DNA of 64,000 nt from an uncultured bacterium (GTDB lineage: Bacteria > Actinomycetota > Actinomycetes > S36-B12): assembly GCA_963793105.1 (NCBI GenBank), contig CAWBZB010000015.1, forward strand, positions 6,168 through 70,167, written 5' to 3'. Both the position numbers and the translations under genes were made by a program. Below the pieces are notes generated by a model. That model did no database searches, was not told the DNA's origin, and worked only from the letters and a program-made list of their open reading frames with translations. Position 1 is the first letter of the stretch. Every line of letters starts with the position of its first letter. This document shows, one piece after another, positions 13,266 through 64,000 of this stretch.

Positions 13266-13274
13266 GCTGGCGGC

Positions 13275-13929: not shown

Positions 13930-13940
13930 CTCCCGCCCGC

Positions 13941-14050
13941 CCGCACCCCGCACCCCCCGCCCCCCTCTTTTCTTCCGCGAGTGGCCACTTGTTGCTGCTC
14001 TGGCGGGCCTCCTGACCGCAAGGACTGGCCACTCGGCGTTCCTGGGGATG
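13941..14050. repeat. GC-rich palindromic intergenic repeat, copy A
   Basis: C-rich tract, then GAGTGGCCACTTGTTGCTGC ... GCAAGGACTGGCCACTC. The arms are inverted repeats. Confidence 0.8.
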
Positions 14051-17707: not shown

Positions 17708-17712
17708 CCATC

Positions 17713-41721: not shown

Positions 41722-41771
41722 CTCAGGGAAGCTGCCCTGGCGTGACACGACTACCTGGAGAGTGACCTGCC

Positions 41772-43178
41772 GTGAAGAGTGCCGTCGAGACCCTGTCCCC
41801 GACCCGCGTGAAGCTGACGGTCGAGGTGCCCTTCGACGAGCTGAAGCCCAGCATGGACGCCGCCTACGGCCGGATCGCCCAGAGCGTGAACGTGCCCGGG
41901 TTCCGCAAGGGCAAGGTGCCAGCCAGGGTGATCGAGCAGCGGTTCGGCCGCGGCGCGGTCCTCGAGGAGGCCGTCAACGACGCGCTGCCGAAGGCGTACG
42001 ACGAGGCGCTGCGTGAGAACAGCATCGTGCCCGTGGGTCGCCCCGAGCTCGACGTGACGGAGCTGCAGGACGGCGAGGCACTGACCTTCACCGCCGAGGT
42101 CGAGGTGCGGCCGGAGTTCGAGCTCCCCGACTACTCGTCCCTCACGGTCGCGGTGGCCAACGCGGTGCCGGACGAGGCGGACGTCGACGAGCAGCTCGAC
42201 GGACTGCGCGGGCGATTCGCCAACCTCAAGGAGGTCGAGCGCCCGGCGGCGGACGGCGACGTCCTGCTGGTCGACATCGCGGGCGCCACGGCCGAGGGCG
42301 ACGCGGTCGAGGACCTGGTCGGCAACGCGATGTCCTACGAGCTCGGAACCGACGGGATGCTGCCCGGGTTCGACGACGCGGTGCGCGGCGCGGTGAAGGA
42401 CGAGGTGCGCACCTTCGAGTTCGTGCCCGAGAACGGCGACTGGGCGGGCGTCACGCTGGTGGTCACTGCGACCGTGAAGGCCGTGCGCGAGCGTGAGCTG
42501 CCGGCCCTGGACGACGACTTCGCCCAGCTGGCGAGCGAGTTCGACACCGTCGAGGAGCTGCGCAACGACATCCGCGAGCGCCTGACGCAGGGCAAGCGGC
42601 TCGAGCAGGGCGCCGAGGCGCGCAACAACGTCCTGCAGGTGCTGCTCGACTCGATCGACATCCCGCTGCCCGAGGGTGTCATCGCGGCGGAGGTGGAGGA
42701 GCACTTCACCGACGGCCACGACAGCGGCGAGGAGCATCGCGCGGAGGTCGAGCAGCAGGCCCGTGAGTCGCTCAAGAGCCAGTTCGTGCTCGACAAGATC
42801 GCCGAGAAGGAGGAGGTCGCGGTCGGCGAGACCGAGCTCTCCGCCTGGCTGATCCAGCAGGCCCCCCGCTACGGGATGAGCCCCGACGCGTTCGCGAAGG
42901 CGCTCGTCGAGGCCGGCCAGGTGCAGATGGCGATCCAGGACATCCGTCGAGCCAAGGCGCTGGCCGTGGTGCTCGAGTCGGCCACGGTGGTCGACGCCGA
43001 CGGCAACCCGGTGGACCTGAAGGCCCTGGACGAGGAGATGAACCGCCTCCAGGCCATGCAGATGATGCAGGGGATGACCGACGTCGAGGTCGACGAGGAG
43101 GTCGACGTCTACACCGATGAGGACGGCAACGTCGTCGAGGTAGACGTGACCGAGGAGATCATCGAGACGCGGGCCTGA
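41772..43178 (+). CDS. tig: trigger factor
   Basis: ORF 41772..43178. N-terminal ribosome-binding domain (GFRKGKVP), a PPIase-like middle domain and an acidic C-terminus. Confidence 0.95.
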   Translation: MKSAVETLSPTRVKLTVEVPFDELKPSMDAAYGRIAQSVNVPGFRKGKVPARVIEQRFGRGAVLEEAVNDALPKAYDEALRENSIVPVGRPELDVTELQDGEALTFTAEVEVRPEFELPDYSSLTVAVANAVPDEADVDEQLDGLRGRFANLKEVERPAADGDVLLVDIAGATAEGDAVEDLVGNAMSYELGTDGMLPGFDDAVRGAVKDEVRTFEFVPENGDWAGVTLVVTATVKAVRERELPALDDDFAQLASEFDTVEELRNDIRERLTQGKRLEQGAEARNNVLQVLLDSIDIPLPEGVIAAEVEEHFTDGHDSGEEHRAEVEQQARESLKSQFVLDKIAEKEEVAVGETELSAWLIQQAPRYGMSPDAFAKALVEAGQVQMAIQDIRRAKALAVVLESATVVDADGNPVDLKALDEEMNRLQAMQMMQGMTDVEVDEEVDVYTDEDGNVVEVDVTEEIIETRA

Positions 43179-43209
43179 TCCTGCGTCAACGGAGGGGTTG
43201 ACGGGTCTA

Positions 43210-43234
43210 CCCTCGAGGTGTCAGCACTCGAGGG
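43210..43234 (+). terminator. possible tig terminator hairpin
   Basis: CCCTCGAG-N9-CTCGAGGG, 32 nt after the tig stop. No T-tract. The right arm overlaps the SD of the next small ORF. Confidence 0.35.
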
Positions 43235-43241
43235 AGGCGTC

Positions 43242-43430
43242 ATGGCGGGCAACAACAACGCGGCGGCCGGCGGTGCCGGTGCCGTCTACGGGCTCGGGTT
43301 CCTGGGGGCCCTGGTCTGGAACTGGCAGCAGGCCGACACCTTCTGGGGCTATCCCTGGGGCGTCATCGAGTCCTTCTTCTGGCCCGGGTTCCTGGTCTAC
43401 GAGCTGTTCAAGGTGTCGGCCGGCGTCTGA
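43242..43430 (+). CDS. small membrane protein (62 aa), function unknown
   Basis: ORF 43218..43430 from the ATG preceded by GGAGG. Very high GC3 and two hydrophobic segments. Confidence 0.55.
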   Translation: MAGNNNAAAGGAGAVYGLGFLGALVWNWQQADTFWGYPWGVIESFFWPGFLVYELFKVSAGV

Positions 43431-43530
43431 CGGCTTCCGCCCCTGCAGAGTCCAGAATGGGGCCGTGACGCGAAGAGCCCTGGGCCGCACGTCTTACCGA
43501 CGAGGCGATCTCCCAGACGCTCGGCACCTG

Positions 43531-44535
43531 ATGGTGACGTCGGCCGCGAACGCAGCAGCACCCCGCAGGCCGCGAGTGACCGTGGTCGTGGCCACCTACA
43601 ACCGCTCCAACGTTCTGCGTTACGCACTCGACAGCCTGGTCGCTCAGAGTCACTCTGACTGGGAGGCGGTGATCGTCGGTGACCGGTGCACCGACGACAG
43701 CGAGGCCGTCGTGGCCTCCTTCGGGGACGCGCGGATGACGTGGGTGAACCTGCCCCGCAATCTGGGTGAGCAGTCCGGGCCCAACAGCGTCGGGGCCCGG
43801 ATGTCCCGCGGATCCTTCATCGCGTGGCTCAACCACGACGACATGTGGTCCCCTGTGCATCTCGAACACCTGCTCGAGGTCGCGCAGCGTCATGAGGCGG
43901 ACTTCGTGGTCAGTGCATGGCTGGCCGTCGGACCGCACTCCCGGCAGGATCTCGACGCGGGAAGGCTGACAGCGGAAGTCTGGAACGCCACCCCACGTGA
44001 TCGTCTCGATCCAAGGGGTGTCTACCCCGCGTCGACCTGGTTGGTCGACGCCCGGCTGGTACGCCGGATCGGAGACTGGCGACCCGCAAGCACGCTGAGA
44101 GCGGCGCCATCTCAGGACTTCGTCTACCGCTGCTGGGCGAGCGGGGCGCGAATGCGATTGACCGGAAGGCCCAGCGTCGTCGCGATTCAGTCCGGCAGGT
44201 TCGAGGGCGCCTACGCGACGCGACGGGCGAGCGAGCACGAGGCGTTCGCTCCACTCGTGGCGTCGAACAGCCCCGAAGGCCTGATGTCGGAACTCCACGC
44301 CACTGTGCCGCCTCCGCCCGACCTGGATGAGCCTCCATGGCGGCACGCTGGCGCGGTTCAGACCTACGCGTGGCGACAGGCCTACTCAGCATTCTCGCGC
44401 TCGGCCGTGCCGATGGCGGCGCGGCTCGGATGGGGTCCGAACGAACTCAAGGCGTGGGCCAAAGGACGTTCGGCGGGCGCCTTCATGGCCGAGTTACACG
44501 CACAACGGGGCATCGAGCGCAGAGGTTCTGGGTAG
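43531..44535 (+). CDS. glycosyltransferase family 2
   Basis: ORF 43198..44535 from ATG 43531. VVVATYNRS, VGDRCTDDS and WLNHDDMW motifs. Confidence 0.75.
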   Translation: MVTSAANAAAPRRPRVTVVVATYNRSNVLRYALDSLVAQSHSDWEAVIVGDRCTDDSEAVVASFGDARMTWVNLPRNLGEQSGPNSVGARMSRGSFIAWLNHDDMWSPVHLEHLLEVAQRHEADFVVSAWLAVGPHSRQDLDAGRLTAEVWNATPRDRLDPRGVYPASTWLVDARLVRRIGDWRPASTLRAAPSQDFVYRCWASGARMRLTGRPSVVAIQSGRFEGAYATRRASEHEAFAPLVASNSPEGLMSELHATVPPPPDLDEPPWRHAGAVQTYAWRQAYSAFSRSAVPMAARLGWGPNELKAWAKGRSAGAFMAELHAQRGIERRGSG

Positions 44536-44544
44536 GTTGGGGGT

Positions 44545-45081
44545 GTGGCAGATGACGGCTGGCTTCTGGACGGTGTGCAGGACGACGTGTCCATCACGGC
44601 CGATTGGCAGCCGGTCGCGGCACAGGCCATCGATGGCGTGCAGATCCAGGAAGTGCGGAACGTCCCCACCGGCTATGGGCACCTGACCGAGTTCTTCCGC
44701 GCGGACTGGGGCTTCGTCCCGTCTGAGGTGGGGCAGGTCTTCCAGTCGGTCCTGCTGCCCGGCCGATTGTCAGCGTGGCACGCGCATGGCGAGACCACCG
44801 ATCGGCTGTTCGTCGCTTCGGGGGCGTTGCTGGTGGCGTTGTACGACGCCCGCGAGGCCTCGCCCACGCGCGGTCAGCTGCAGGTGGTCCGAAGCTCGAT
44901 CCTGCGACCGCAACTGGTCGTGGTGCCGCCGCGCGTGTGGCACGGGGTCAAGAACGTCGGCAACGAAGCCGCGACCTTGGTCAACATGGTGGACCTTGCG
45001 TACCGCTACGAGGGCCCGGACCACTATCGGCTCCCCCCTGATGCATCCAGCATCCCGTTCGACATCGTGGCCGCCCTGTAG
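44545..45081 (+). CDS. RmlC-like cupin (dTDP-4-dehydrorhamnose 3,5-epimerase family)
   Basis: ORF 44545..45081. Cupin beta-barrel with WHAH and PPRVWHGVKN motifs. Confidence 0.65.
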   Translation: MADDGWLLDGVQDDVSITADWQPVAAQAIDGVQIQEVRNVPTGYGHLTEFFRADWGFVPSEVGQVFQSVLLPGRLSAWHAHGETTDRLFVASGALLVALYDAREASPTRGQLQVVRSSILRPQLVVVPPRVWHGVKNVGNEAATLVNMVDLAYRYEGPDHYRLPPDASSIPFDIVAAL

Positions 45082-45110
45082 TCACCCTCGAGTACGACGT
45101 CGGCATTCGG

Positions 45111-45133
45111 CCCACGGCGAACTCCGCCGTGGG
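45111..45133 (+). terminator. possible terminator hairpin between the cupin gene and clpP1
   Basis: CCCACGGCG-AACTC-CGCCGTGGG, a 9-bp perfect stem. No T-tract. Confidence 0.4.
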
Positions 45134-45206
45134 TGGGGAAGCCGCATGGTGGCCGCCGCGTTAGGGTCAGACAACAGTCACCGAACGGCGACGGCAACAG
45201 GAGGCT

Positions 45207-45848
45207 TTGGTGGGCGACATCTACGTGCCCGACTCTCGCGGTGCGGGCGGCGGCATGACCGGCTTCGGCGACATGCTCGACGAGCGGCTGCTCCGCGAGC
45301 GGATCATCTGGCTCGAGGGCGAGGTGCGGGACGAGAACTCCAACCGCATCGCCAAGCAGCTCCAGGTGCTGGCCGCCGAGGATCCCGAGCGCGACATCAC
45401 CCTCTACATCAACTCGCCCGGCGGCTCGATCAGCGCTGGCATGGTCGTGTACGACACGATGCAGCTGATCCCCAACGACATCACGACGGTGGCGATGGGC
45501 CTGGCCGCCAGCATGGGCCAGTTCCTCCTGTGCGCCGGGGCTGCGGGCAAGCGATACGCCACCCCGAACACGCGCGTGATGATGCACCAGCCGTCAGGCG
45601 GGCTGGGCGGCACGGCGTCGGACATCAAGATCCAGGCCGAGCAGATGCTGTTCATCAAGAAGCGCATGGCCGTGCTCATCGCCGAGCACACCGGCCAGAC
45701 GCTCGAGCAGATCGAGAAGGACTCCGACCGCGACCGCTGGTTCGACGCGGAGGCCGCACGCGAGTACGGAATCATCGACCACGTCTACAGCACGGCCGCT
45801 GACTCGCCCGAGGCGAAGGCCACCAAGGGCAAGGGAGACTCCAAGTGA
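45207..45848 (+). CDS. clpP1: ATP-dependent Clp protease proteolytic subunit
   Basis: ORF 45207..45848 with GTG after AGGAGG. INSPGGS, catalytic Ser in GLAASMG, His in MMHQP. Confidence 0.9.
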
Positions 45849-46471
45849 GCGCCAGCGCGAGCAACCTGACCGGCCCCACGGGCCGCTACATCCTGCCGGA
45901 GTTCCGGGAGCGCAGCGCCAATGGCGAGCGCATCCACAACCCGTACACCAAGCTGTTCGAGGAGCGCATCATCTTCCTCGGCGTGCAGATCGACGATGCC
46001 AGCGCGGACGACGTCATGGCCCAGCTGCTCACGCTGGAGTCCCTCGACCCCGATCGCGACATCCAGATCTACATCAACTCGCCCGGTGGCTCGTACACGG
46101 CGATGACGGCGATCTACGACACGATGCAGTTCGTCAAGCCGCAGGTGCAGACGGTGTGCCTGGGCCAGGCAGCGAGCGCCGCGGCGGTCCTGCTCGGTGC
46201 CGGCAGCCCGGGCAAGCGTTTCGCCCTGCCGCACGCGCGGATCCTCATCCACCAGCCCTACACCGAGGGCGGCGGCCAGGGGTCGGACATCGAGATCCAG
46301 GCGAACGAGATCATCCGGATGCGCACCGAGATGGAGGGCATCATCGCCAAGCACACCGGCCGGAGCCCCGAGCAGGTGGCGGAGGACATCGAGCGCGACA
46401 AGATCCTCACGGCGGCAGATGCCAAGGAGTACGGCCTCATCGACGCGGTCATCTCCAGCCGCAAGGCCTGA
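45845..46471 (+). CDS. clpP2: ATP-dependent Clp protease proteolytic subunit
   Basis: ORF 45845..46471. GTGA overlap with clpP1. INSPGGS, GQAASAA and LIHQP motifs. Confidence 0.9.
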
Positions 46472-46482
46472 GAACCAGCAGC

Positions 46483-48321
46483 ATGCGATCAGGGACGGTC
46501 CCGCTGGGGCCGTCCCTTCGCGCATCCCTGGACCTGATCGGCCAGCGCGCCCGGCGCCGGTACATCGTGGTCGTCATGGCCCAGATGGCCACCTCCCTGC
46601 TGGATCTGGCCGGCGTCCTGCTCATCGGCATGACCGTGGTATTCGCCTACTCGGTTCCGGCGGGCGTTGAGGTCCCGGCGACCGTCCAGACCGCGATCGA
46701 CACCCTCGGCCTCGAGGATGTTCCGCTGACGACCCTGGCCGTGGCCTGTGGCCTGATCGCCGCGGCGCTCCTGCTCACCAAGAGCGCTGTGAGCGCGATC
46801 ATGCTCCAGCGCATCTTCCGCTTCCTGGCCCGGCGTCAGGCCCAGGTGGCTTCGCAGCTGAGCCGCGGGTGGTTCGGCGCTGACGTGCGCGCCGTCCATT
46901 CGCGGACGGACATCGAGATCGAGCAGGCGGTGACGACTTCCGCGTACTTCGCGACCACGGGGCTGCTCGGCTCGCTGGCCGTCGTCGCGACCGAGCTCTC
47001 GCTTCTGGTCGTGCTGTCCGTGGCCCTGGTGTTCGTCGACCCGGTCGCCACGCTGCTGGCGGCGGCGTGCTTCGTCGTGGTGTCTGTCGTGGTGCACCGC
47101 GCGCTCAGTGGGTGGGCAGGACGGCTCGGCCGTGAGCTCACGGAGCGCAGCGTGGCGGGCCGGGCCGATGTCCGGCAGGCCATGGACTCCTTCCGTGAGC
47201 TTCGCACGGCCCGCCGGCTGGGCTACCCGCTCGAACGCTTCGAAGGCAACGTCGAGCGAATCTCGTCGAACAACGCCAACCTGCTCTTCATCAACAACGT
47301 GCCGAAGATCGCCTACGAGGCGGCGCTGGTCGTCGGCGCGCTCCTGCTCGTCGGCTGGCGGGTCGTGACGGGTGACGTGGCGGAAGCCCTGGCCTTCCTC
47401 GCGGTGTTCCTGACTGCGGCCGCGCGCCTGCTGCCGTCCATGGTCCGACTGCAGGGGCAGCTGGTGAGCATGCGGGCCGCCGCCGGCCAGGCGAGGCTCA
47501 CCTTCGAGTTGGCTGATGAGGAGCGCGAGCGCGGCGCGCCGCCGAGTCTGGACGACCTGGGCCGGCGACTCCCACTGTCCGGAGATGAGACCGCTGACTT
47601 CGACCCGACTGTCGAGGTCACGGACGTCACCGTGACGTACCGGGGCAACGTTGAGCCGACGCTGCAGAACGTGACGCTGAGAATCGCGGCGGGGGAGTCC
47701 CTGGTCCTGGTGGGTCCGACAGGGGTGGGGAAGTCGACTCTGGTCGACGTGATCCTGGGGGCCACGGAGCCGGAGAGCGGCAGCGTCCGCATCGGCGGGC
47801 TCGACCCCCGCGAGTGCCAGGAGCGCTGGCCCGGCGCGATCGCGTACATGCCGCAGGACTGCCCGATCTGGAGCGGCACGGTTCGGGACAACGTGGCCTT
47901 GGGGATTCCTGCCGACCAGATCGACGAAGATGCGGCGTGGCGTGCCCTCGAGCAGGCGCACCTGGCCTCGGACGTCCGGGAGCGTGGCGGTATCGACGCG
48001 CAGGTCGGGCAGGCCGGTCGGCAGTTGAGCGGTGGGCAGCGGCAGCGCCTGGGCATCGCCCGGGCCCTGTACTCCCAGCCGCGGCTGCTGGTCCTCGACG
48101 AAGCGACCAGTGCCCTAGACGAGGAGACGGAGGCGCTCATCGGCGGCGTGATCGAGGAGCTGCGCGGAACCGTCACCGTGATCGCCGTCGCGCACCGGCG
48201 GTCCACCATCGAGCGGGCCACGCGGATCGACGTGGTCGCCGATGCCGGCATCGCCTTCCTCGGCTCGCGGAGTACTCGTCTTCAGCCAGCAGGAGGGACG
48301 GCTCTCGCCCCACTACCGTGA
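46483..48321 (+). CDS. ABC exporter, fused permease/ATP-binding protein
   Basis: ORF 46156..48321 from ATG 46483. Six-TM domain. Walker A GPTGVGKST, signature LSGGQRQR, Walker B LLVLDEATSALD. Confidence 0.85.
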   Translation: MRSGTVPLGPSLRASLDLIGQRARRRYIVVVMAQMATSLLDLAGVLLIGMTVVFAYSVPAGVEVPATVQTAIDTLGLEDVPLTTLAVACGLIAAALLLTKSAVSAIMLQRIFRFLARRQAQVASQLSRGWFGADVRAVHSRTDIEIEQAVTTSAYFATTGLLGSLAVVATELSLLVVLSVALVFVDPVATLLAAACFVVVSVVVHRALSGWAGRLGRELTERSVAGRADVRQAMDSFRELRTARRLGYPLERFEGNVERISSNNANLLFINNVPKIAYEAALVVGALLLVGWRVVTGDVAEALAFLAVFLTAAARLLPSMVRLQGQLVSMRAAAGQARLTFELADEERERGAPPSLDDLGRRLPLSGDETADFDPTVEVTDVTVTYRGNVEPTLQNVTLRIAAGESLVLVGPTGVGKSTLVDVILGATEPESGSVRIGGLDPRECQERWPGAIAYMPQDCPIWSGTVRDNVALGIPADQIDEDAAWRALEQAHLASDVRERGGIDAQVGQAGRQLSGGQRQRLGIARALYSQPRLLVLDEATSALDEETEALIGGVIEELRGTVTVIAVAHRRSTIERATRIDVVADAGIAFLGSRSTRLQPAGGTALAPLP

Positions 48322-53424: not shown

Positions 53425-53694
53425 TCAGGAATCCGACGCGGTGAGGATCCCGATCGTCGTCATCTTCGCCAGGAACGGCTCGACGTCCGCGCGGCACCGC
53501 TCGTCGCTGACGTCGAACTCCTCCCGCAGTGACGAGACCAGGGCGTCGACCGTCGCCGGCTCCGCCAGCAGCGCCCAGACGCGCGCCCCCACACGGTCGA
53601 GCGAGTGGTAGCTGAAGTCGGCAGGAGAGAGCAGGACGACCTGGCCGTCGACGACAGCGTCGACGGCTCCGGTGGCGCGTGAGTACACGGTCAT
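53425..53694 (-). CDS. PqqD-family peptide chaperone (RiPP recognition element)
   Basis: ORF 53425..53763 from ATG 53694, with ATGA overlap on the kinase stop. VVLLSPADFSYHSLDRVGARVWALL...TVDALVSSLREEFDV...DVEPFL is the typical PqqD pattern. Confidence 0.8.
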   Translation of the reverse strand: MTVYSRATGAVDAVVDGQVVLLSPADFSYHSLDRVGARVWALLAEPATVDALVSSLREEFDVSDERCRADVEPFLAKMTTIGILTASDS

Positions 53695-54562
53695 GGCGGC
53701 GTGGTGCTCCCTTGGTCGACGATGATCGAGGCGATGTGGTCCAGGACGATGTCGAGGTGCCACCCTTCGGGCGGTCGGGTGACGCGGTGCACCTCGACGC
53801 TGGAGGCCAGCCGGGTGGCCCAGGCGAAGAACGAGTGAGCGCGACCGTCGGCAGCAGAGATGCCGGCGGAGTTGGAGTTGTTCAGGATCGCCTGGATCCG
53901 CTCGGCGCCCGACGAGCGGCGCGGCAGGCGACGTCGGTGGCAGTGCTCTCGTCGATCATCAGCTCGACGGCGACGCGGAGCGGCCGGGCGCCGTCGACCC
54001 ACGGGCACGCTCGCGCTGATCTTGCTGAGCTCGGACGTCCCGACGCGGGCCGTGTCGGGCACCTCGAAGTGCGCCGCGGCCTGGTCGGTGAGGTGCACGG
54101 GACGCTCCCAGCCGAAGACGATACGGCTGGTCGTCGACGAAGTCGACCGGGACGACGTCGTCGATGATCAGGTGCGTGCCCGCGGCGGCTCGAGTGCGGT
54201 GACGGTGGTGGACTTGCCGGCGCCGGAGAAGCCCATGACGGCCAGGGCGCCGGCGTCGATGACGACGGCGGACGCGTGCAGCGTGTACTCCTGCCGCAGG
54301 ACGCGGATCCAGCGCGGCGCCCACCCGTAGACCAGGTAGTCCATGTCGTGGACCGTGCGGCCGGGGCTCCGGCTCGAGGGTGACGCTCTGGGCGGTGACG
54401 TGCATGCGCCCGACGCCGTCGATCAGGGCGAGGAACTCACCGGGCGCCATCTGCATGAAGCCCTCGTCGCGGGTGACGCCCTCGAGGCTCTCGGCGATGG
54501 GCGCCGACGACCACGTCGACCCCCCATTCGCGCGCGGGGAAGCCGGCGGCGATGGAGGTCAT
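53691..54562 (-). pseudogene. HprK-related P-loop serine kinase (lasso/RiPP-associated type), at least six frame changes
   Basis: Seven colinear segments in three frames rebuild about 283 aa, including LHASAVVIDAGALAVMGFSGAGKSTTVTAL and HLIIDDVVPV. Frame changes lie near 54500, 54362, 54185, 54120, 53995 and 53915. Confidence 0.7.
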
Positions 54563-54569
54563 GGAGGGC

Positions 54570-54575
54570 AGGCTA
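54570..54575 (-). promoter_or_regulatory. -10-like hexamer TAGCCT, 7 nt upstream of the kinase ATG (possible leaderless start)
   Basis: The minus strand reads CAACTAGCCTgccctccATG and fits TANNNT. Confidence 0.3.
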
Positions 54576-54684
54576 GTTGACGGGTCCTGCCGCCGGCCTG
54601 CCTGAAGCCGGCCTCGACTTCGCGACCGCGAGTGGCCTGCGGTGCGGCTCAGCCGCTCGACGTCAGGGGTCGGCATTATGGAGC

Positions 54685-54813
54685 CTACGCTGGGTGGGGC
54701 TGGGACTGGGGGTGCCGTTGCGGATGCGGGCGTGACGGGTGCCCGGACGCGCCGTCGGCGTCGCTGAGGGGCGTGACCTCGGGGGCCTGCCAGTCGAGCT
54801 TCTCGCTAGTCAT
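54685..54813 (-). CDS. putative RiPP precursor peptide P1 (42 aa as written; tail frame uncertain)
   Basis: MTSEKLDWQAPEVTPLSDADGASGHPS... It is a DNA-level tandem paralogue of P2. Relative to P2 it has a 1-nt insertion near 54735 and lacks one AACGGC unit. Confidence 0.5.
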   Translation of the reverse strand: MTSEKLDWQAPEVTPLSDADGASGHPSRPHPQRHPQSQPHPA

Positions 54814-54822
54814 TGTCGGGTC

Positions 54823-54957
54823 CTAGGTTCGGGTGGGGCTGGGACTGGGGGTGCCGTTGCCGTTGCGGATGCGGGCGGACGGGTGCCCGGATGCGCCGTC
54901 GGCCTCGGTGATAGAGGTGACGTGCGGCGCGGTCCACTCGCTCTTGTCAGGAGTCAT
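54823..54957 (-). CDS. putative RiPP precursor peptide P2 (44 aa)
   Basis: MTPDKSEWTAPHVTSITEADGASGHPSARIRNGNGTPSPSPTRT, within ORF 54823..55008. GC3 is very high. Has the W-x-A-P-x-V leader-like motif. Confidence 0.55.
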   Translation of the reverse strand: MTPDKSEWTAPHVTSITEADGASGHPSARIRNGNGTPSPSPTRT

Positions 54958-54964
54958 GCGGGGG

Positions 54965-54970
54965 AGTCTA
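54965..54970 (-). promoter_or_regulatory. -10-like hexamer TAGACT, 7 nt upstream of the P2 ATG (possible leaderless start)
   Basis: The minus strand reads GCCTAGACTcccccgcATG. Confidence 0.3.
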
Positions 54971-55060
54971 GGCGGGCTCCGGCCTCCGGACAAGGACTTT
55001 TCCCGCAATTTCGGGCATGAGTGGATTCCGATTCGCCTACAGTCGGGCGCGGGAGGTTCG

Positions 55061-56104
55061 ATGCCAACACTGCGCCGCTACCTGTCGGCCGGGCGCGACG
55101 TCGCGCGTGACGCGGTGACCTGGCGCCCGGGTCGGCAGACCAGCGAGGACACCTACCTGGCCGTCCGCACCCTGCATCGCAAGACCGGAGGAGTCTCGAG
55201 CAGGGCCGCGCTCGCGGTGGTGCGGGCACGTGCACGACCGGGGCGGGGCTGACGCCGCGGGCGCGCTGGACGCCCGCGTGGCAGCCGGCGCTCGCGGACG
55301 GTGAGCAGGGACGGCGTCGAGCGTGACGCCGCCGCTGCTCGACGACGGCGGCCGCTGGCGCGGATCCGCGACTTCGCGGCGACGGCCCCGGCCATCCTGT
55401 CGCAGCGTCGACGGCAGCGACGCAGGCGCGGGACCCTGCAGGATCGGGACGCCGGACACGGCCGGGGTGCGCATCGTCGAGCGGTTCGTCCTCGACCAGC
55501 CCGACATCCAGGGCGTCATCGCCAGCCCGCAGGTGCGCGACTTCGCGCGCGGCCTACTTCCACGCGACCCCCGTGATGCACCCGCCGCAGCTGTACTGGT
55601 CGCTGCGCCGGCGCCCGGCTGATCGGGCGAGGCGGCGGCCGTCGAGCGCGCGTCGGTTCCACTGGGACTACGACGGCCTGGCCGGCCTGCGGCTGCACAT
55701 GTACCTGACCGACGTGGACGAGGGCGCGGCGCCGATGAGCTACGTCCTGGGCAGTCACGCCCAGGGCGGGCTTCGGTCACCGGCACTGCGGCAACGCGGA
55801 CATGGGCGTCGCCGACGAGGAGCTGTACGCGCAGTACCCGGCCTCGGCGGTGCGGGCCATCACCGGCCCGGCCGGCACGACGTTCATCAGCGACTCCCGG
55901 GGCCTGCACCGCGGCAACGACGCCATCAGCGCGGACCGGCTCTTCCTCGTCATGCCGATGCAGGCCACCGGGTTCGGCGGCTACCAGCTGCGCCCGCGGC
56001 TGGTGACCCCGAAGGACCCGGGGCTGAAGGCCGGGATCGAGCAGGGCCGGGTGGAGCTCAGCCTCTTCCGGCCCCGCCCCGAGGGGTCGGCCGGAACGCG
56101 CTGA
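55061..56104 (+). pseudogene. PhyH-like Fe(II)/2-oxoglutarate dioxygenase, at least three frame changes
   Basis: ATG 55061 follows GGGAGG. Colinear pieces lie in ORFs 54833..55252, 55323..55622, 55573..56433 and 55802..56104. FHWDYD...YVLGSH and GLHRG give a His-x-Asp...His triad. Confidence 0.6.
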
Positions 56105-56512
56105 CGGCCGTGAACCCGTCGCTTGCCGGTCCGCCGACCACGGTGCCGGTGCTGCCCGACCAGCCAGGCGTGGGCGTCCCAGCCATCGGTGCGGCGCAGG
56201 CCGATGATCGCCGTGCCGGGCCGTCGGCGCAGCCGCAGCATGACCTGTGCGGCCAGGGCCTGGTCGAGGCAGTTCGCCTGCCACGGCACGCGACGGACGG
56301 CACGGCCCACCGCCGCCTGCACGGACGCCTCGACTGCCGGTGGGCGAGGAGCCGTCCGGCCCGGCGTCGGGGGCGGGCACGGGGCTCCCGAGCAGGCGGT
56401 GCCAATGCCGCGTCGACAGGGTCCGGCGGGTGACGGATGCGACGGCGAGGACGGTCCATGCCTCGGCGAGCATCGCAAGGTCCATCGCCCGCACGCGCGC
56501 CCGCTCAGCCAC
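56058..56512 (-). pseudogene. lasso-peptide B2-type transglutaminase-like cysteine peptidase, two frame changes
   Basis: The N-terminus AMLAEAWTVLAVASVTRR is in ORF 55037..56512. The core RRVPWQANCLDQALAAQVMLRLRR...DAHAWLVG is in ORF 55981..56985. The tail STGTVVGGPASDGFTAV is in ORF 56058..56459. Confidence 0.7.
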
Positions 56513-56558: not shown

Positions 56559-56564
56559 TAGGGT
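56559..56564 (+). promoter_or_regulatory. -10-like hexamer TAGGGT, 7 nt upstream of the P3 ATG (possible leaderless start)
   Basis: The plus strand reads GCTAGGGTgacgcccATG. Confidence 0.3.
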
Positions 56565-56571
56565 GACGCCC

Positions 56572-56673
56572 ATGACGAATCCCAGCACCCCCGAGGCCCG
56601 CGAGCCCTGGCAGTCCCCGTCCGTCGAGCAGATCGCCGTGACCGACGACGCGCAGTCCATTTCCTTCGCCTGA
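56572..56673 (+). CDS. putative RiPP precursor peptide P3 (33 aa)
   Basis: MTNPSTPEAREPWQSPSVEQIAVTDDAQSISFA, the end of ORF 56437..56673. 31 of 33 codons end in G/C. Shares W-x-S-P-x-V-x-x-I with P1 and P2. Confidence 0.55.
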   Translation: MTNPSTPEAREPWQSPSVEQIAVTDDAQSISFA

Positions 56674-56684
56674 CCGATCCGGTC

Positions 56685-57827
56685 CTAGCCGCGAAGCGGC
56701 AGTCGGCCTCCTCGCGTGAGCGCGAGCCAGCGGGCGAGGTCGCGGGCCTCCCGGTAGGTCAGCCGCGCATCCCCTCGATGCGCGTGCCGCCACGTGCGCC
56801 GCACGCTCAGCAGTTCCGCGGCCAGTCGCGGATCCGTCTGGATCGCGCCCATGATCGTCCGCGACAGGTTCGTGGTCGTCGTTGGGGCGGGGCCTGAACC
56901 AGGGGCCGGCAGCGGCTCGCCCGCCCGGATGGCGCGCAGCGCGGGCAGGAGCGGGTACCCGAGCCGGTGCTGGTAGGCGTGCCACACGTTGGGCCGCAGG
57001 TCCACCTCGAACACCGCGTGCGTCCCGTTCGGGCGCCTTATGGCGGACAGGTTGCCGAACCAGCGACCGCCCAGCGCCGCGGCGATGCGGTCGAGGTCGG
57101 CAAGCAGGCGGCGATCGGTCAGCGGGACGAACTGCCGCGTCACCGAGACCCCGTAGGGGCCGAGCGACCGGAGCACGCGGGAGTAGGGGGCGGTGGCGAC
57201 CCGGCCGTCACTGACGAGGATGTCGATGGACACCAGGAACCCGTCGACGAGTTCCTCGACGAGGTAGGGCCCCTCGTTCCCGCGTCGCGGCACCACCACG
57301 TCGCCGGGAGATCGCAGCACTGTGGTGCCGGCGCCCGCGCCGCTGCGGTCCGCCTTGACGATCACCGGGTACCCGAGGGTCGCGGCTGCGTGCGGCAGGT
57401 CCCCGGGGGAGGGGGCCACCGTCCAGCGGGGCTGGTCGACGCCGAGGTCGCGCAGGAGTGCGGCCATCCCGGTCTTGGTGCCGACGGCGTCGAGGTGCGC
57501 GGCGGGTACCGGCAGCAGGGCCAGTGCACGCGGGTGGTGCTCGGCGGCCGCGAGCACGTCCCAGACGTCTGCATCGGAGCCGAGGATCACCCAGTCGCCG
57601 GGTCCGACCGAGTCGGCGATCGTCGCGAGGATGGCGTGCCGCTGCTCGAGGTCGTCGGGCAGCGTGGCGCATCGGCGGGGGTGGCGGCTGTAGCCCAGGC
57701 GGCTCCCCGGAGCCGACCACACGTCGACGGTGAGGCCGGCGGCGGTCAACATCGGCAGGAGGCGAGCAACGGCGGACGGGTGCGGGGAAATGACGACAAC
57801 GCGGTCGACGCCGGCGCCCGTGGTCAT
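56685..57827 (-). CDS. ATP-grasp domain ligase
   Basis: Last 380 codons of ORF 56685..58922 from ATG 57827. GYPVIVKADRSGAGAG, YLVEELVDG and FEVDLRPN are typical ATP-grasp motifs. Confidence 0.8.
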   Translation of the reverse strand: MTTGAGVDRVVVISPHPSAVARLLPMLTAAGLTVDVWSAPGSRLGYSRHPRRCATLPDDLEQRHAILATIADSVGPGDWVILGSDADVWDVLAAAEHHPRALALLPVPAAHLDAVGTKTGMAALLRDLGVDQPRWTVAPSPGDLPHAAATLGYPVIVKADRSGAGAGTTVLRSPGDVVVPRRGNEGPYLVEELVDGFLVSIDILVSDGRVATAPYSRVLRSLGPYGVSVTRQFVPLTDRRLLADLDRIAAALGGRWFGNLSAIRRPNGTHAVFEVDLRPNVWHAYQHRLGYPLLPALRAIRAGEPLPAPGSGPAPTTTTNLSRTIMGAIQTDPRLAAELLSVRRTWRHAHRGDARLTYREARDLARWLALTRGGRLPLRG

Positions 57828-57859
57828 GACGTTGGACGATATCCGGCGGCGTCCACGGA

Positions 57860-58604
57860 CTACAGCAGCCCGAGCCGCGCTGGCCCGCGCGACGGCCTCC
57901 TGCCTCGTGGAAACGCCGAGGACCCTCAGGGCCCGCTGGAGGTCGGCCTTGACGGTGTCGCGGGAGCACCCGAGCTCCAGGGCGATCGACGCGTTGCCGA
58001 GCCCCCGTTCGACGCCCTGCAGGATGCTCGCCTGCCGTGGGGTGAGGGCGAGCCCGGGGCTCCAGGATCGCGGGAGGTCGGGGGGCGCTGGCCGGCTCGG
58101 GTGCGTCAACCACAGTCCCAGGGCGGCCGACAGGCCGAGCAGGGCCGGCTGGGCGTCGACGGATGCGGCGGCGGGGTCGGCGGCGAGGAAGCCGTAGGCC
58201 CCGACGGCCGTGCCGTCGAGCGCGATCGGGACGCTCATGAGCACCCCGTCGGGCAGGTCCGCGAGCAGCGAGGTCCACATCCCGGCATCGATCTCGAGCA
58301 GCGGGTACTCGTCCAGCAGTGTGCGCAGCGACGTGGCCACCGGCATTCCCTGCTGCACGGCGAGCACGAAGGGCAGGTGGCCGCGCATCGGGATCGCCCG
58401 GTACCGGGCAAGCTCGTCGGTCGGGTAGCCGTCGCTCGCCAGCGTGAGCAGTTCGTCGCCGACCAGGCGCACGATGCTGCCGGCGGTCGCCCCGAAGGCG
58501 GCGAGCGGACCGTGCACGAGCGCGGGGACGACGATCGCCGGGGAGGGTAGGGAGGCGAGGAGGCGCAGGAACGGGCCGAGCGCCGGCAGGTGGAGGCCGG
58601 TCAC
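57860..58604 (-). pseudogene. GAF-like + LuxR-type HTH regulator, paralogue 1; frame change near 57885 removes the stop
   Basis: GTG 58604 overlaps the paralogue-2 stop (GTGA). A one-base correction gives the typical C-terminus ARLGLL followed by TAG at 57860-57862. As written it reads through into the ATP-grasp gene. Confidence 0.7.
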
Positions 58605-59338
58605 GAGGGGAGCTGCCCGAGGGCGGTGGCCCGTTCGATCGCCGAGGCGCGCGTGGCGACGCCCAGGGCGGCGTAGATGCGGCGCAGCTCCGCCTTCACC
58701 GTCGAGTCCGAGATCGAGAGGGCGGCGGCGATGGCGGTGTTGGACCTCCCGGCCGCCACCATGCCCAGGATGTCGACCTGCCGGGCTGTCAGCGACCCTG
58801 CGACGACGTCCGGAGCGAGGTCGGCCGCGGGACCCGGGTGGCTCAGCCACAGGCCCAGGGCGGCGCCGTACGCCTCGAGCCCGGCGATCTCCGTGGTGCT
58901 CCACTGCCGTTCGTCGCGGCAACTGAATCCGAAGGCGCCGATCGCGCGGCCCTGCAGCACGATGGGCGCGGTCACCAGCGACCCGTACCCCTCACTGGCA
59001 ATGGCCCGGTCCCAGAGGTCGTCGTCCCGCTCGAGCCCGGCATTCTCCGGCAGCACCTCCAGGGCACCGGAGATGATGACGGCCTGCTCGCGGAAGGCCC
59101 GCGTCATCGGGTAGTCGCCGGCGTTGGGCATCACCCGGTAGGGCTCGACCATCTCGGCCGGGTATCCGTAGTCCCCGACGATCACCTGGTCTCTGCTCAC
59201 CGCGGTGCTGAGGACGCCGGCGTGCGCGCCGAACTCGGCCAGCGGCCCCGTGACCAGGGCGGTGATCACCGTCGTCGGGTCCGGCCGGGTGCCGAGCAGG
59301 AGCAGGATCTCGGCGATCCCCGCCCGGTCGCCGCTCAT
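58601..59338 (-). CDS. GAF-like + LuxR-type HTH regulator, paralogue 2
   Basis: ORF 58601..59338. C-terminal LTARQVDILGMVAAGRSNTAIAAALSISDSTVKAELRRIY. Confidence 0.8.
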   Translation of the reverse strand: MSGDRAGIAEILLLLGTRPDPTTVITALVTGPLAEFGAHAGVLSTAVSRDQVIVGDYGYPAEMVEPYRVMPNAGDYPMTRAFREQAVIISGALEVLPENAGLERDDDLWDRAIASEGYGSLVTAPIVLQGRAIGAFGFSCRDERQWSTTEIAGLEAYGAALGLWLSHPGPAADLAPDVVAGSLTARQVDILGMVAAGRSNTAIAAALSISDSTVKAELRRIYAALGVATRASAIERATALGQLPS

Positions 59339-60117
59339 CGGGCCAGCTCCGCGGCCTGCTGCGCGTCGTCGAGGAGTCCGAGCGCTCGCGCCCGCGCGAC
59401 GGCGACGTCGCGGTCATCGGTGCGCAGCATCCGCATGATCTGGCCCAGGTCGGTCTTGACGGTGGATGCCGAGTAGCGAAGGAGGTGGGCGATCAGCTCG
59501 GTCGGCAGGCCCTGCTCGACCATCAGCAGGATGAGCTCCTGACGGTGGGTGAGGGCGACGGGTGTCTCGTCGGACTGGACGGCCGTCGGCGTGACCTTGA
59601 CCCGTCGCGGGTGCGTCAGCCACAGGCCGAGGGCCGCACCGATCGCGAGAAGCGCGGTCTCGTCGGCGTCGGTCCAGTCGACCTTGCGGTCGCAGATGAA
59701 TCCGTATGCGCCGACGACGCGCCCGTCGTACCGGATCGGCACGTTGCCGATGGACTCTGCCCCGAGCCGCTCGACGATCGCCTGCCACAGCGCCTCGTCG
59801 AGGGCGGCCGCGCGGTAGTCGCGCGCGTTGGTGGCCGCCTCGGCGGGCTGGAACGAGTCGTCCCGGGCGGCCCGGGTGATCGCGAAGTCGAGGCGTAGCG
59901 GGATCCGGCCGTGCCGGGAGGTCTCGTCCGCGGTGTGCCCGTACATGGCCAGCCGGTCCAGGTGATCGCCGTCGATCAGCTTCCAGATCCCGCCGGCGCG
60001 CGCGCCGTAGTGGCTCAGCGGTCCGTGCACCAGGGCAGCGAGGGTGCCTTCCGGGGCGGGCAGGGTCGACAGGTACTGCAGCCATGACGACTGTCCGGGC
60101 AACGCTGCGGACGGCAT
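59335..60117 (-). CDS. GAF-like + LuxR-type HTH regulator, paralogue 3
   Basis: ORF 59335..60555 from ATG 60117 after GGAGGTGGAGG. C-terminal LTHRQELILLMVEQGLPTELIAHLLRYSASTVKTDL. Confidence 0.8.
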   Translation of the reverse strand: MPSAALPGQSSWLQYLSTLPAPEGTLAALVHGPLSHYGARAGGIWKLIDGDHLDRLAMYGHTADETSRHGRIPLRLDFAITRAARDDSFQPAEAATNARDYRAAALDEALWQAIVERLGAESIGNVPIRYDGRVVGAYGFICDRKVDWTDADETALLAIGAALGLWLTHPRRVKVTPTAVQSDETPVALTHRQELILLMVEQGLPTELIAHLLRYSASTVKTDLGQIMRMLRTDDRDVAVARARALGLLDDAQQAAELAR

Positions 60118-60437
60118 CGCCTCCACCTCCCCCGAGGTCCCCCGCCTGCGCAGATGCAGGACGTGATGCTCACCGTATCTCCCAGTTGCGCCATCGGCCC
60201 GGGGATCCGCGCGAGCGGCGCCGTGGCGGGTATGACCAGGGCATGGTCGCCATGGCGTCGACCGGGGAACGGGCGCGTGAACTAATGGCTCCCGGCACCG
60301 GATACGCGCGGTGCCGCGCGCGCCGATGGGGGTGCTGCAGCCGAGCGGGGGACGGCTCCAGCGCCCCCGTTCGGTCTGGACGGTCACACCGCCCGCTGGG
60401 CCGGTCATGAGGCAGTCGTGCGGCGGACACTGGAAGC

Positions 60438-61487
60438 ATGAGGCGGGTTCCCGCGGTCGCGACGGCACTCCTGGTGGTTCTTGCGTTGGCGGGCTGCACC
60501 GCGCAGGCGGTCGTCCTTCCCCCCGCAGAGCCCGTCCCGGCACCGTCGGCGGCAACCGGGGATGCGGACCCCTTCGTGACGGGCCTGACGGTGCCGTGGG
60601 CGATCGGCGGCATGCGCATCGAGCGGGACGGCCGGCTGCGCTACTTCGCGGGGGAGTGGCCCACCGTGCCCGTCGCCGCGCTGCGGCTGTGGGACACCCG
60701 CACGGCCTGGCTCAACATCGAGCCCGCGGACGACCGGTGGGACTTCGCCCGGCTGGATGCCTTCGTCGACAAGGCGATCGCGCGCGGCACGACGGACATC
60801 TCCCTGACCCTGGCCGGGACACCGAAGTGGGCTGCCACCACGGTGTCCGACTCGGACGCTCCCTGGCTCGGCCCGGGCTCGGCCTCGCCGCCGAGGCGGA
60901 CCGCCGAGTGGCGGGAGTTCGTCACGAAGGTGGCCACCCGGTACCGCGGCCGGATCACCTCCTACGAGATCGGCAACGAGCCGAACCTCAGGGCCTTCTG
61001 GAGCGGCACGCCGGGCCAGTACGGGACGTTCGTGCGCACCGCCGCCGAGGCGATCCGCGCGGCCGATCCGCAGGCGGTCATCGTCGCCGCGGTGGGGCTG
61101 GTGCGCGGCCGGAAGGACCTCGACGGCCTGGCCCCGTGGATCGACGCGGCGACCTCCAGCTTCGAGGTGGACGCCGTCTCCGTGCACGTCTACCCCAAGG
61201 CGTCGGCGATGGACGCCGCGCCGACGCTGCTTGCGGGCGTGCGGCGGCACGTCGCTGCCGGGGCGCCGGAGGAGAAGCACCTGTGGGCCACCGAGGTGAA
61301 CGTCCACGGCGGCAGCGACCTGTCCAGGTGGCGGCAGGAGTCGGCGGTCCTGGACCTGACGGAGTCGGCCGAGGCGGCGGGGTTCTCCCGCGTCTACTGG
61401 TACGCGTGGACGGACCTCGGCCCGGAGGACCTGATCCAGCTGGCGCCCGGGACGCCCGGCGCCGGGGCGCTGGCCGCGATCAGCTGA
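60438..61487 (+). CDS. clan GH-A TIM-barrel glycoside-hydrolase-like lipoprotein
   Basis: ORF 60438..61487. Lipobox LALAGC. YEIGNEPN (acid/base Glu) and WATEVN (nucleophile Glu). Confidence 0.7.
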   Translation: MRRVPAVATALLVVLALAGCTAQAVVLPPAEPVPAPSAATGDADPFVTGLTVPWAIGGMRIERDGRLRYFAGEWPTVPVAALRLWDTRTAWLNIEPADDRWDFARLDAFVDKAIARGTTDISLTLAGTPKWAATTVSDSDAPWLGPGSASPPRRTAEWREFVTKVATRYRGRITSYEIGNEPNLRAFWSGTPGQYGTFVRTAAEAIRAADPQAVIVAAVGLVRGRKDLDGLAPWIDAATSSFEVDAVSVHVYPKASAMDAAPTLLAGVRRHVAAGAPEEKHLWATEVNVHGGSDLSRWRQESAVLDLTESAEAAGFSRVYWYAWTDLGPEDLIQLAPGTPGAGALAAIS

Positions 61488-63446: not shown

Positions 63447-64000
63447 TCAGACCTCTTGGCGCTGCTGGAATGCGTCGAACTCGGCCTGGAGCTCGTCCAG
63501 GTTCTTCACCAGGTCCCAGTCGCCACTGGACACCTGCTTCTCGGTGACCGTGGAGACATCGGCGGGGGCGACGCCGAGTGAGTCGAAGACCCGGGCGCAG
63601 GTGCCGGGAACGTCGCCGACGAGCTGGTCGTAGTGCACGTCCAGGTAGTTCGGCCCGGCGAAGCGGAGCGCGAAGTAGGCATCGGCCCGGTACATGTCGT
63701 CGAAGAAGGCCCGGGCGCGGTCCGGTTCGATCTCGAACGGCTCCACGGTGGCCCGGGACTGAGGGTCGTGCGACCAGTTGACCCACTGCCGGCTGCGGGT
63801 CGCGAACTCCAGGGAGATCAGGACGCTGAGGTAGTCATCGCGCCGCATGTGCAGGAGATGGGCGGTGGGGTAGTGCGCCCGAATGCGCCTGAAGAGGTGC
63901 GTCGCGCCGCCGGTGGACACGTGGTCAGCGAAGATCTTGACGCCCACGACGTCCACCTCGCGGCCCAGGTAGTCGGTACGCACGCCGAAGACGTGCTCGT
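63447..64000 (-). CDS. Stf0-like sulfotransferase family protein, 5-prime end outside window
   Basis: ORF 63447..63983 stays open to the window edge. The general Stf0-type layout is present (...LHMRRDDYLSVLISLEFA ... YLDVHYDQLVGD). Confidence 0.55.
   Translation of the reverse strand, partial: EHVFGVRTDYLGREVDVVGVKIFADHVSTGGATHLFRRIRAHYPTAHLLHMRRDDYLSVLISLEFATRSRQWVNWSHDPQSRATVEPFEIEPDRARAFFDDMYRADAYFALRFAGPNYLDVHYDQLVGDVPGTCARVFDSLGVAPADVSTVTEKQVSSGDWDLVKNLDELQAEFDAFQQRQEV

Follow-up and report, generated by a model that had tools for sequence, protein, structure and literature searches.

In this study, we address the question of what is encoded by two short open reading frames (ORFs), P2 and P1, which lie head to tail in a 64,000-nucleotide stretch of DNA (the window, GC content 71%) from an uncultured actinobacterium, directly upstream of a gene pair for an HprK-like kinase and a PqqD-family protein. 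A preliminary description of the locus had taken them for duplicated precursor-peptide genes with a leader of the type bound by RiPP recognition elements (RREs; RiPP, a peptide made by the ribosome and modified after translation). Comparing the window with related loci, which were collected from the genomic contexts of the kinase and by scanning collections of genomes and metagenomes with an alignment-based method, we consider it probable that P1 and P2 are precursors of an actinobacterial RiPP-type cluster, in which the PqqD-type RRE would present them to the kinase and to an Fe(II)/2-oxoglutarate oxygenase. Related loci are numbered from L001 onwards, and the coordinates of the features are collected in Table 1.

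The duplication is readily visible in the DNA. Tandem Repeats Finder returned a repeat at 54692-54957 with a period of 144, 1.9 copies, 78% matches and a score of 324, and the repeat pairs comprise 80 nt at 74% identity (spacing 144) and 38 nt at 95% identity (spacing 139). The arrangement of the two ORFs, their translations and their position relative to the kinase–PqqD pair stand as first described, while the repeated block measures 139-144 nt instead of the roughly 125 nt given before. Aligned with P2, P1 carries one additional base at 54733 and lacks one 6-nt GCAACG (Asn-Gly) unit; the former had been located correctly to a 1-nt indel near 54735, the latter had been overlooked. Similarity between the copies is highest at their 3' ends: the tail DNA (54692-54729 against 54831-54868) is 95-100% identical, with all 30 bases of the shared tail the same apart from the 6-nt gap, and the leader-encoding DNA is only ~74% identical, which points to a recent gene conversion limited to the tail, or to repeat collapse as an artefact there. 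At the protein level P2 carries W8-T-A-P-H-V13 and P1 W-Q-A-P-E-V, and the motif W-x-A-P-x-V-x-x-(I/L) reported for both copies recurs in a third ORF, P3, which had not been listed.

Homologues of these peptides were found well beyond the window. In about ten actinobacterial loci from metagenome-assembled genomes (MAGs) or metagenomes, the same kinase–PqqD pair is accompanied by homologous genes, one to six of them in tandem at each locus and about 35 altogether, and small ORFs of the family adjoin that pair in nearly all of the related loci, usually in tandem. Copies of the P1/P2 kind (type A) next to the pair number six in L007, four each in L100 and L101, three each in L004, L005 and L099, two in L009 (Nanopelagicales, ~45% GC) and in L001 of L001/L002 (L001 being an Actinomycetales MAG), and one in L010. 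Their consensus reads M-x6-W-x-A-P-x-V-T-P-L-T-(D/E)-A-(D/E)-G-A-S-x5-R-I-R-N-G, and ends in a tail of 1-16 residues. Throughout the close clade exactly 33 codons lead from Met to Gly33 of R-N-G, with W8, A10, P11, V13, R31 and N32 near-invariant and T/S17 also conserved, and the distance from Trp to Asn is 24 residues even when distant members are included (23 in L099). The tail contains Ser in almost every copy and Ser or Thr in all, its sequence being otherwise hypervariable. One of the two Nanopelagicales copies (L009, 4390-4524, + strand) has Gly in place of Trp (EEGSAPSVEAL) and may be a degenerate copy or the result of a sequencing error. Pfam and NCBIfam scans of P1, P2 and P3 returned no family; a word-indexed protein search with P2 as the sole query gave no match, as may be expected at the sensitivity limit of that method, and an exhaustive phmmer search with P2 of 1.84 billion representative proteins added only three further peptides. 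We conclude that the predicted peptide family is real and either rare or seldom annotated.

Substitutions between the copies follow the P2 reading frame. Nei-Gojobori counts pooled over 16 genes × 33 codons gave a pN/pS of 0.52 in this frame, the two alternative frames yielding 0.99 and 1.86, and the dN/dS of paralogue pairs falls to values as low as ~0.1. Long spurious ORFs are common at 71% GC, so that a non-coding tandem repeat, a regulatory element or an RNA carrying ORFs by chance had to be considered. Such an origin is at odds with the frame-specific substitution pattern and with protein-level conservation down to the Nanopelagicales loci of 45% GC; moreover, the Rfam scan of 53.3-57.0 kb gave no match, and neither inverted repeats nor terminator-like sites were found. 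We assign it a negligible probability, and the non-coding reading is, on the strength of selection test and cross-locus conservation, effectively refuted. Purifying selection in the P2 frame and homologous multi-copy ORFs at related PqqD/HprK-like loci, both suggested as checks in the preliminary description, together with synteny and the published RRE-binding motif, support its assignment of precursor-like peptides with an RRE-type leader, and on this comparative evidence P1 and P2 are real, conserved and selected genes for putative precursor peptides.

The predicted reader of the leader is the intact PqqD-family protein of the cluster, which resembles the B1 proteins of lasso peptide clusters. 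It matches the crystal structures of the lasso-type RREs TbiB1, PbaB1 (paeninodin-like) and LppB in the PDB with E-values of 2e-7 to 3e-6, and in an ungapped alignment to LppB it keeps V35, L32, F74, M78 and D70, which in LppB are among the residues of the two hydrophobic pockets and of the hydrogen bond that anchors the aromatic residue (PMC13381572). Discrete lasso-type RREs bind the experimentally defined motif [Y/W]xxPx[L/V/I/F/A], and paeninodin-type leaders that are associated with a kinase typically have Trp at position -15 (PMC13381572), a pattern that the precursor of the paeninodin-type locus L015 fits as well. The analogy to PqqA drawn in the preliminary description holds for the combination of a small peptide carrying W-x-x-P-x-(F/V)-x-x-L with a PqqD-fold partner, but not beyond it: among the ORFs examined around the cluster there is no gene for a radical-SAM enzyme like PqqE, the peptides have no Glu-x3-Tyr core, and the lasso B1 model scores far better than the model for PqqD of pyrroloquinoline quinone (PQQ) biosynthesis (TIGR03859; 1.7e-4, 21 bits against a cut-off of 46). 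With the window protein below this cut-off, the PqqA reading was rejected.

Despite its frameshifts, the kinase retains the P-loop GFSGAGKSTT and the acidic pair in IIDDVVPVD; the corresponding DD pair is essential in PsmK (PMC6993621). A hand-joined kinase query retrieved 17 intact proteins of 256-296 residues, aligned over 86-99% of their length, and one further match (P0012), a 170-residue fragment. The alignment-based scan links the kinase to the K genes of Bacillaceae loci of the K-B1-B2-N type.

Table 1. Coordinates of the peptide genes, promoter-like hexamers and associated genes (window numbering unless a locus is named).
Feature	Position	Strand	Evidence or remarks
ABC exporter, fused permease-ATPase	46483-48321	+	tig-clpP-clpP-ABC context adjoins the cluster in L099 too
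PqqD-family RRE, lasso B1-like, intact	53425-53694	-	Pfam PqqD 1.4e-16; NF033536 (lasso_PqqD_Bac) 3e-15
HprK-like peptide kinase, 7 frameshifts	53691-54563	-	17 intact homologues; stop overlaps PqqD start (ATGA)
P1 as assembled, P2 paralogue, 42 aa MTSEKLDWQAPEVTPLSDADGASGHPSRPHPQRHPQSQPHPA	54813→54685	-	ORF; frame lost after GHPS
Extra base frameshifting P1	54733		T on + strand, A on coding strand
Hexamer before P1, TAGGAC, degenerate (last T->C)	54820-54825	-	6 nt upstream of ATG; overlaps P2 TAG stop
P2, encoding a type-A precursor peptide of 44 aa, MTPDKSEWTAPHVTSITEADGASGHPSARIRNGNGTPSPSPTRT	54957→54823	-	ORF; syntenic homologues; purifying selection; putative leader ~residues 1-22, core from ~S23, invariant R31-N32, variable tail
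Hexamer before P2, TAGACT, -10-like	54965-54970	-	7 nt upstream of ATG
PhyH-type Fe(II)/2-oxoglutarate oxygenase, ~11 frameshifts	55061-56104	+	H-x-D...H triad and Arg retained
Lasso B2-type cysteine leader peptidase, transglutaminase-like core, 3 frameshifts	56058-56512	-	NF033537 1.2e-16; Transglut_core3 4.9e-17
Hexamer before P3, TAGGGT, -10-like	56559-56564	+	7 nt upstream of ATG
P3, second peptide type MTNPSTPEAREPWQSPSVEQIAVTDDAQSISFA, intact	56572-56673	+	same W-x-x-P-x-V-x-x-I leader motif
Divergent ATP-grasp enzyme, intact, accessory	56685-57827	-	Pfam 2e-6, 28.0 bits vs cut-off 27; orthologues in L001, L004, L005
P3-type peptide, L001	6505-6597	-	
P3-type peptide, L004	899-988	-	
P3-type peptide, L005	1236-1337	-	

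Taking these relatives into account, P1 and P2 could be ordinary paeninodin-type lasso precursors that yield a threaded phosphorylated lasso, the gene for the cyclase lying somewhere else in the genome: the window has B1 and B2 proteins of the lasso type and an HprK-like kinase, and W-x-x-P-x-V matches paeninodin-type leaders. In the classical paeninodin-type locus L015 (Sutcliffiella) the genes stand in the order C, A (MKNWKKPELEILDVENTFAGPGIRTPDETQTDPDEGVHYS), K, B1, B2, N, and tblastn with its cyclase located a cyclase within 6 kb of the kinase in 63 distant loci, among them the actinobacterial L033 and L040. The same search gave no match in the 64-kb window or within the 6-10 kb around the kinase in L001-L013 and L099-L101, and thus none in at least 12 loci of the clade. 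In the paeninodin register (W at -15), assuming cleavage at the corresponding site (W+14), the core would read SGHPSARIRNG..., with no Asp or Glu at positions 7-9 and Gly instead of Thr at -2; most clade loci also lack B2. With neither a cyclase nor a ring-closing acidic residue, the lasso-precursor reading was rejected, and we judge it to be highly improbable.

Three kinase loci from Coxiellaceae MAGs (L023, L042 and L047) likewise contain B2 without a match to the lasso cyclase, L023 and L042 carrying NTP_transf_5 and L042 and L047 PqqD; they may represent another cyclase-less lineage.

The comparison with the paeninodin and pseudomycoidin systems (PadeK/PsmK, PsmN; PMC8498205, PMC6993621) reveals a shared set of homologous kinase, B1 (PqqD), B2 and NTP_transf_5 as well as Trp-containing WxxPx(L/V) leaders, whereas the clade described here differs by the missing macrolactam cyclase of the Asn-synthetase type, the missing ring-closing acid, the rarity of a C-terminal Ser and the additional oxygenase. 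In those systems the kinase acts on the linear precursor (PMC8498205, PMC6993621), and in pseudomycoidin PsmN extends the phosphate with a hexose (PMC6993621).

A cyclase is also missing from the linear polyphosphorylated peptides (LPP) of Bacillota (Popov et al., Nat Commun 2026, PMC13381572), whose kinase polyphosphorylates core Ser3, whose loci lie within polysaccharide regions and which, as paeninodins, were stated to be restricted to Bacillota. Like LPP clusters, the loci described here combine a discrete lasso-type RRE with an HprK-like kinase and, in most relatives but not beside the cluster of the window, an uncharacterised NTP transferase; both have one to three or more precursor genes per cluster with an N-terminal [Y/W]xxPxV leader and variable C-termini, both lie in glycosyltransferase- or polysaccharide-rich surroundings, and linear products are predicted for both. 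Unlike LPP, the hosts are Actinomycetota, a PhyH-type oxygenase that lies outside the LPP core is conserved, the leader follows WxAPxVTPLT(D/E)A(D/E)GAS instead of YxxPxVLxHQxIxFETxxS, the peptides measure 34-49 aa and carry an invariant R-N at a constant distance from Trp, and an extra ATP-grasp enzyme and a second peptide type occur. The gene lists contain either no leader peptidase or, in a subset, the B2 type: neither the Pfam lists of L001, L099, L100 and L101 nor the window proteins scanned, a set smaller than that of all ORFs, include an SpI-like (SipW-type, LppS) peptidase. As the lasso families are ruled out by the missing cyclase, and LPP membership fails on the SpI peptidase that was not found and on the different leader consensus, the clade, as read from its gene content, lacks the defining features of both. 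In its general plan, with kinase-associated and by prediction RRE-dependent peptides, the cluster around P1 and P2 still resembles these known systems; our literature searches found no description of the actinobacterial version.

The conserved core of the clade consists of the peptide gene or genes, oxygenase, kinase and PqqD, usually joined by NTP_transf_5, which is present in L001, L005, L008, L009, L011-L013, L100 and L101 and was not found in the window, L004, L007, L010 and L099. The preliminary description had recognised the kinase–PqqD pair and had overlooked the absence of a cyclase, the conserved oxygenase and the frameshifts in kinase, oxygenase and B2. The oxygenase gene is transcribed divergently from P2. 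Its 339-residue counterpart from L001, used alone, has no sequence match in Pfam, NCBIfam or the PDB; the family of 47 close homologues is nevertheless connected to Pfam PhyH, which matched 31 of 38 members. In this family H-x-D is invariant, the distal His is conserved in at least 90% and an invariant Arg follows downstream. The AlphaFold model reaches a pLDDT (predicted local distance difference test) of 95, and its best Foldseek matches in the PDB are an Fe/2-oxoglutarate proline hydroxylase, SnoN, EctD and GriE.

A subset of loci including the window adds what we propose to be an accessory module of B2-type peptidase, divergent ATP-grasp enzyme and P3. By tblastn, B2 was detected in 4 of 14 clade loci (window, L001, L005, L013), with a weaker match in L004; B2, the cluster-type ATP-grasp enzyme and a P3-type peptide occur together in the window, L001, L004 and L005, and none of the three is present in L099 and L100, each covered over 20 kb (±10 kb), or in the shorter L009. 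P3-type peptides follow the pattern EPWQxPxV(D/E)(E/Q)(V/I)A..(D/E)DA plus 4-7 residues, and in all four loci their gene is on the strand opposite to the ATP-grasp gene, immediately beyond the 3' end of the latter. The L001 ATP-grasp protein gave no match in a PDB sequence search, a profile search against the PDB returned weak matches to ATP-grasp enzymes only (Ddl, cyanophycin synthetase, PurK, RimK), and the single-sequence AlphaFold model (pLDDT 41) was unusable. In the window, the ATP-grasp enzyme is joined without an intervening stop to a LuxR-type regulator in one ORF of 745 residues (56685-58922, - strand), which could be a real fusion or the consequence of a lost stop; behind it lie two more GAF-LuxR paralogues (58601-59338 and 59335-60555), giving three in all after the ATP-grasp enzyme.

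An intact ATP-grasp gene beside B2, peptides with conserved T17, D/E18, D/E20 and S23, and the P3-type gene adjoining the cluster-type ATP-grasp gene in four of four loci would also fit a different assignment, in which the peptides are mainly ATP-grasp substrates, carrying graspetide-like cross-links or an isopeptide ring in place of the cyclase product, and kinase and oxygenase act as tailoring enzymes. As in graspetide clusters, an ATP-grasp enzyme and small peptides with Ser/Thr and Asp/Glu share one cluster; unlike in these, the enzyme is very divergent and accessory. Since L099, L100 and L009 keep two to four type-A peptides without ATP-grasp, B2 and P3, the ATP-grasp enzyme is associated with P3 and not with P1/P2. 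In addition, graspetide ATP-grasp enzymes normally bind leaders themselves and do not use a PqqD-type RRE, making RRE-dependent recognition atypical. We therefore regard P1 and P2 as improbable ATP-grasp substrates.

About equally improbable, in our view, is that the ORFs encode small proteins that undergo no modification (regulators, antitoxins or signalling peptides, for example), or decoys or regulators of PqqD. The neighbourhoods are rich in polysaccharide genes, and these could be the real business of the enzymes. The copies, however, share the RRE-type leader motif (with Gly for Trp in the one L009 copy), they show a strict linkage to genes for a discrete RRE and a kinase of the peptide type, they occur as multi-copy genes with the hypervariable C-termini typical of RiPP precursors, and homologous K/RRE/N modules of paeninodin, pseudomycoidin and LPP modify such peptides.

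For P1 and P2 as RiPP precursors, we propose a model in which the adjacent PqqD-type RRE would bind W8-x-A-P11-x-V13-x-x-L/I16-T/S17 and present the peptide to the modifying enzymes. By homology with the paeninodin Trp at -15, the junction between leader and core is expected after (D/E)-G-A in type-A peptides and after (D/E)-D-A in P3. Since the distance from Trp to Arg-Asn is fixed at 24 residues, the core around R31-N32, rather than the hypervariable tail, would be the target of the RRE-tethered enzymes, and the conserved S/T at 22-26 may be an additional target. Hydroxylation of the core is the probable task of the oxygenase, phosphorylation of Ser/Thr or of the newly made hydroxyl that of the kinase, and the nucleotidyltransferase, where present, may extend the phosphate, in analogy to the phospho-hexose of pseudomycoidin. 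As the cluster has no cyclase and the core no ring-closing acid, the product is expected to be linear, with cyclisation by other means as the alternative. The preliminary description had named the TPSPSPT tail of P2 as a plausible kinase substrate, on the model of C-terminal Ser phosphorylation. This tail is not conserved, and C-terminal Ser occurs in only 2 of the 17 aligned type-A peptides, P2 itself ending in Thr; with Ser present in nearly every copy, the tail stays one of several possible kinase sites, no better supported than T/S17, S/T at 22-26 or the R-N at its fixed distance from Trp.

Each peptide gene also appears to carry its own expression signal. Of 29 peptide genes, counting both types, 23 have a TANNNT hexamer that ends 6-7 nt ahead of the ATG, compared with a background of 1.7% of ATG triplets in the same loci (binomial P ~5e-36); such hexamers occur at peptide ATGs in the window, L001, L004, L005, L007, L009, L099 and L101. 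No Shine-Dalgarno sequence was found upstream of any close-clade peptide gene. An actinobacterial -10 element at this distance fits transcription starting on the A of the start codon. The hexamers at 6-7 nt and the lack of Shine-Dalgarno sequences together suggest that each copy may form its own leaderless transcription unit, and one leaderless promoter per precursor copy would be unusual among RiPP precursor genes. This analysis was run in place of a scan for E. coli-type promoters and terminators, which returned nothing and is uninformative for actinobacteria.

The assembled P1 leaves the family frame at the extra base. If position 54733 is deleted, the ORF runs 54813->54663, reads MTSEKLDWQAPEVTPLSDADGASGHPSARIRNGTPSPSPTQRRLHNADP and regains the family-invariant A-R-I-R-N-G, and the orthologous copy L004_b stays in frame through A-N-I-R-N-A. 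The HPQ-rich tail frame of P1 is thus caused by a 1-nt indel, as had been noted, and is not a biological alternative frame; the lower GC content at third codon positions ascribed to it could not be confirmed (~0.80 against ~0.82 by hand count, a difference that is not decisive). Frameshift-aware alignment to the intact L001 proteins counted 7 frameshifts in the kinase, 11 in the oxygenase, 3 in B2 and none in ATP-grasp and PqqD. All 21 lie within 53923-56365, which together with the P1 base amounts to ~22 indels in ~2.5 kb; 17 skip 1 nt and 4 skip 2 nt, consistent with single-base indels. The frameshifted genes contain no in-frame stops and their amino-acid identity is undiminished (~61-63%), and the genes flanking the patch (ATP-grasp, PqqD, ABC, glycosyltransferase) are intact. 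L004 is nearly conspecific, with an ATP-grasp protein 97% identical and a DNA identity of 94.7% across 5.3 kb (53 gap openings). At four of the kinase frameshift sites the extra base is missing from L004, which has single-base indels of its own elsewhere, including within b and c of its three peptide copies. An exact-sequence look-up of three window proteins found nothing on record, and hence no second assembly of this strain. Taken together, the indels look more like consensus mistakes of noisy assemblies than like gene decay. Because the base at 54733 is one of ~22 indels packed into 53.9-56.4 kb, we think it rather likely to be an assembly error; a real recent frameshift is the less likely, though still plausible, origin.

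P1 was also considered as a chimera of two L004-type copies, for which the alignment gave no clear support. Outside the cluster, an aminopeptidase-N-like gene, identified by eye at 15132-17710 (- strand), is split over three overlapping frames, so that frameshifts are not confined to the peptide cluster.

Several observations weigh against P1 and P2 being the precursors of a functional RiPP cluster. In the assembly, the reading frame is broken in kinase, oxygenase, B2 and P1 alike, and if these indels were real, the cluster would be dead in this genome. The -10-like hexamer of P1 is degenerate. No Ser is strictly conserved at the known sites of HprK-like kinases, C-terminal in paeninodin and core Ser3 in LPP. 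Leader removal is left unexplained in most relatives, as several 20-kb loci have neither B2 nor ATP-grasp, and the nucleotidyltransferase is missing beside the cluster in the window, L004 and L099. A cyclase elsewhere in these genomes is conceivable. The kinase homologues retrieved by the hand-joined query all come from metagenomes or MAGs, no clade member stems from a cultured, characterised organism, and translation, RRE binding and modification are predictions from the genes.

If P1 and P2 are indeed such precursors, cyclase-less relatives of phosphorylated lasso peptides would reach Actinomycetota, including abundant freshwater lineages (Nanopelagicales), and an Fe/2-oxoglutarate oxygenase together with an HprK-like kinase acting on an invariant Arg-Asn core would constitute a new enzyme pairing. 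The ~35 natural variants with a fixed ruler between RRE-binding motif and conserved site would make RRE-guided site selection assayable. These genes for peptides of 34-49 aa are almost absent from protein databases, as the three matches among 1.84 billion representatives illustrate, and standard pipelines would miss the cluster as lasso-type, since it has no cyclase. A more far-reaching proposal, which we put forward as speculative and rather doubtful in its entirety, is that of a distinct actinobacterial RiPP class with leaderless multi-copy precursors, an RRE ruler, sequential hydroxylation, phosphorylation and nucleotidyl or glycosyl transfer, and a linear product at cell-envelope glycan loci, where in a subset the ATP-grasp enzyme cyclises or ligates the second peptide type.

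Farther out, the window contains GT2 and GT4 glycosyltransferases, an aquaporin, the ABC exporter, glycosyl hydrolases and a sulfotransferase. The latter (Sulfotransfer_3, 1e-8; 63447-63983, - strand) lies ~6 kb from the cluster, and some lasso clusters with a kinase have been described as bordered by sulfotransferase genes (PMC8498205). In L001, a protein of 803 residues (11587-13998, - strand) that combines a weak HprK/ScmC-like N-terminal domain with two GT2 domains is encoded 2.5 kb from the cluster. The ABC exporter may be associated with the cluster; it belongs to a block of trigger factor, ClpP, ClpP and ABC exporter that is found at 41766-48321 in the window and at 560-5473 in L099, which hints at a conserved chromosomal position of the cluster.

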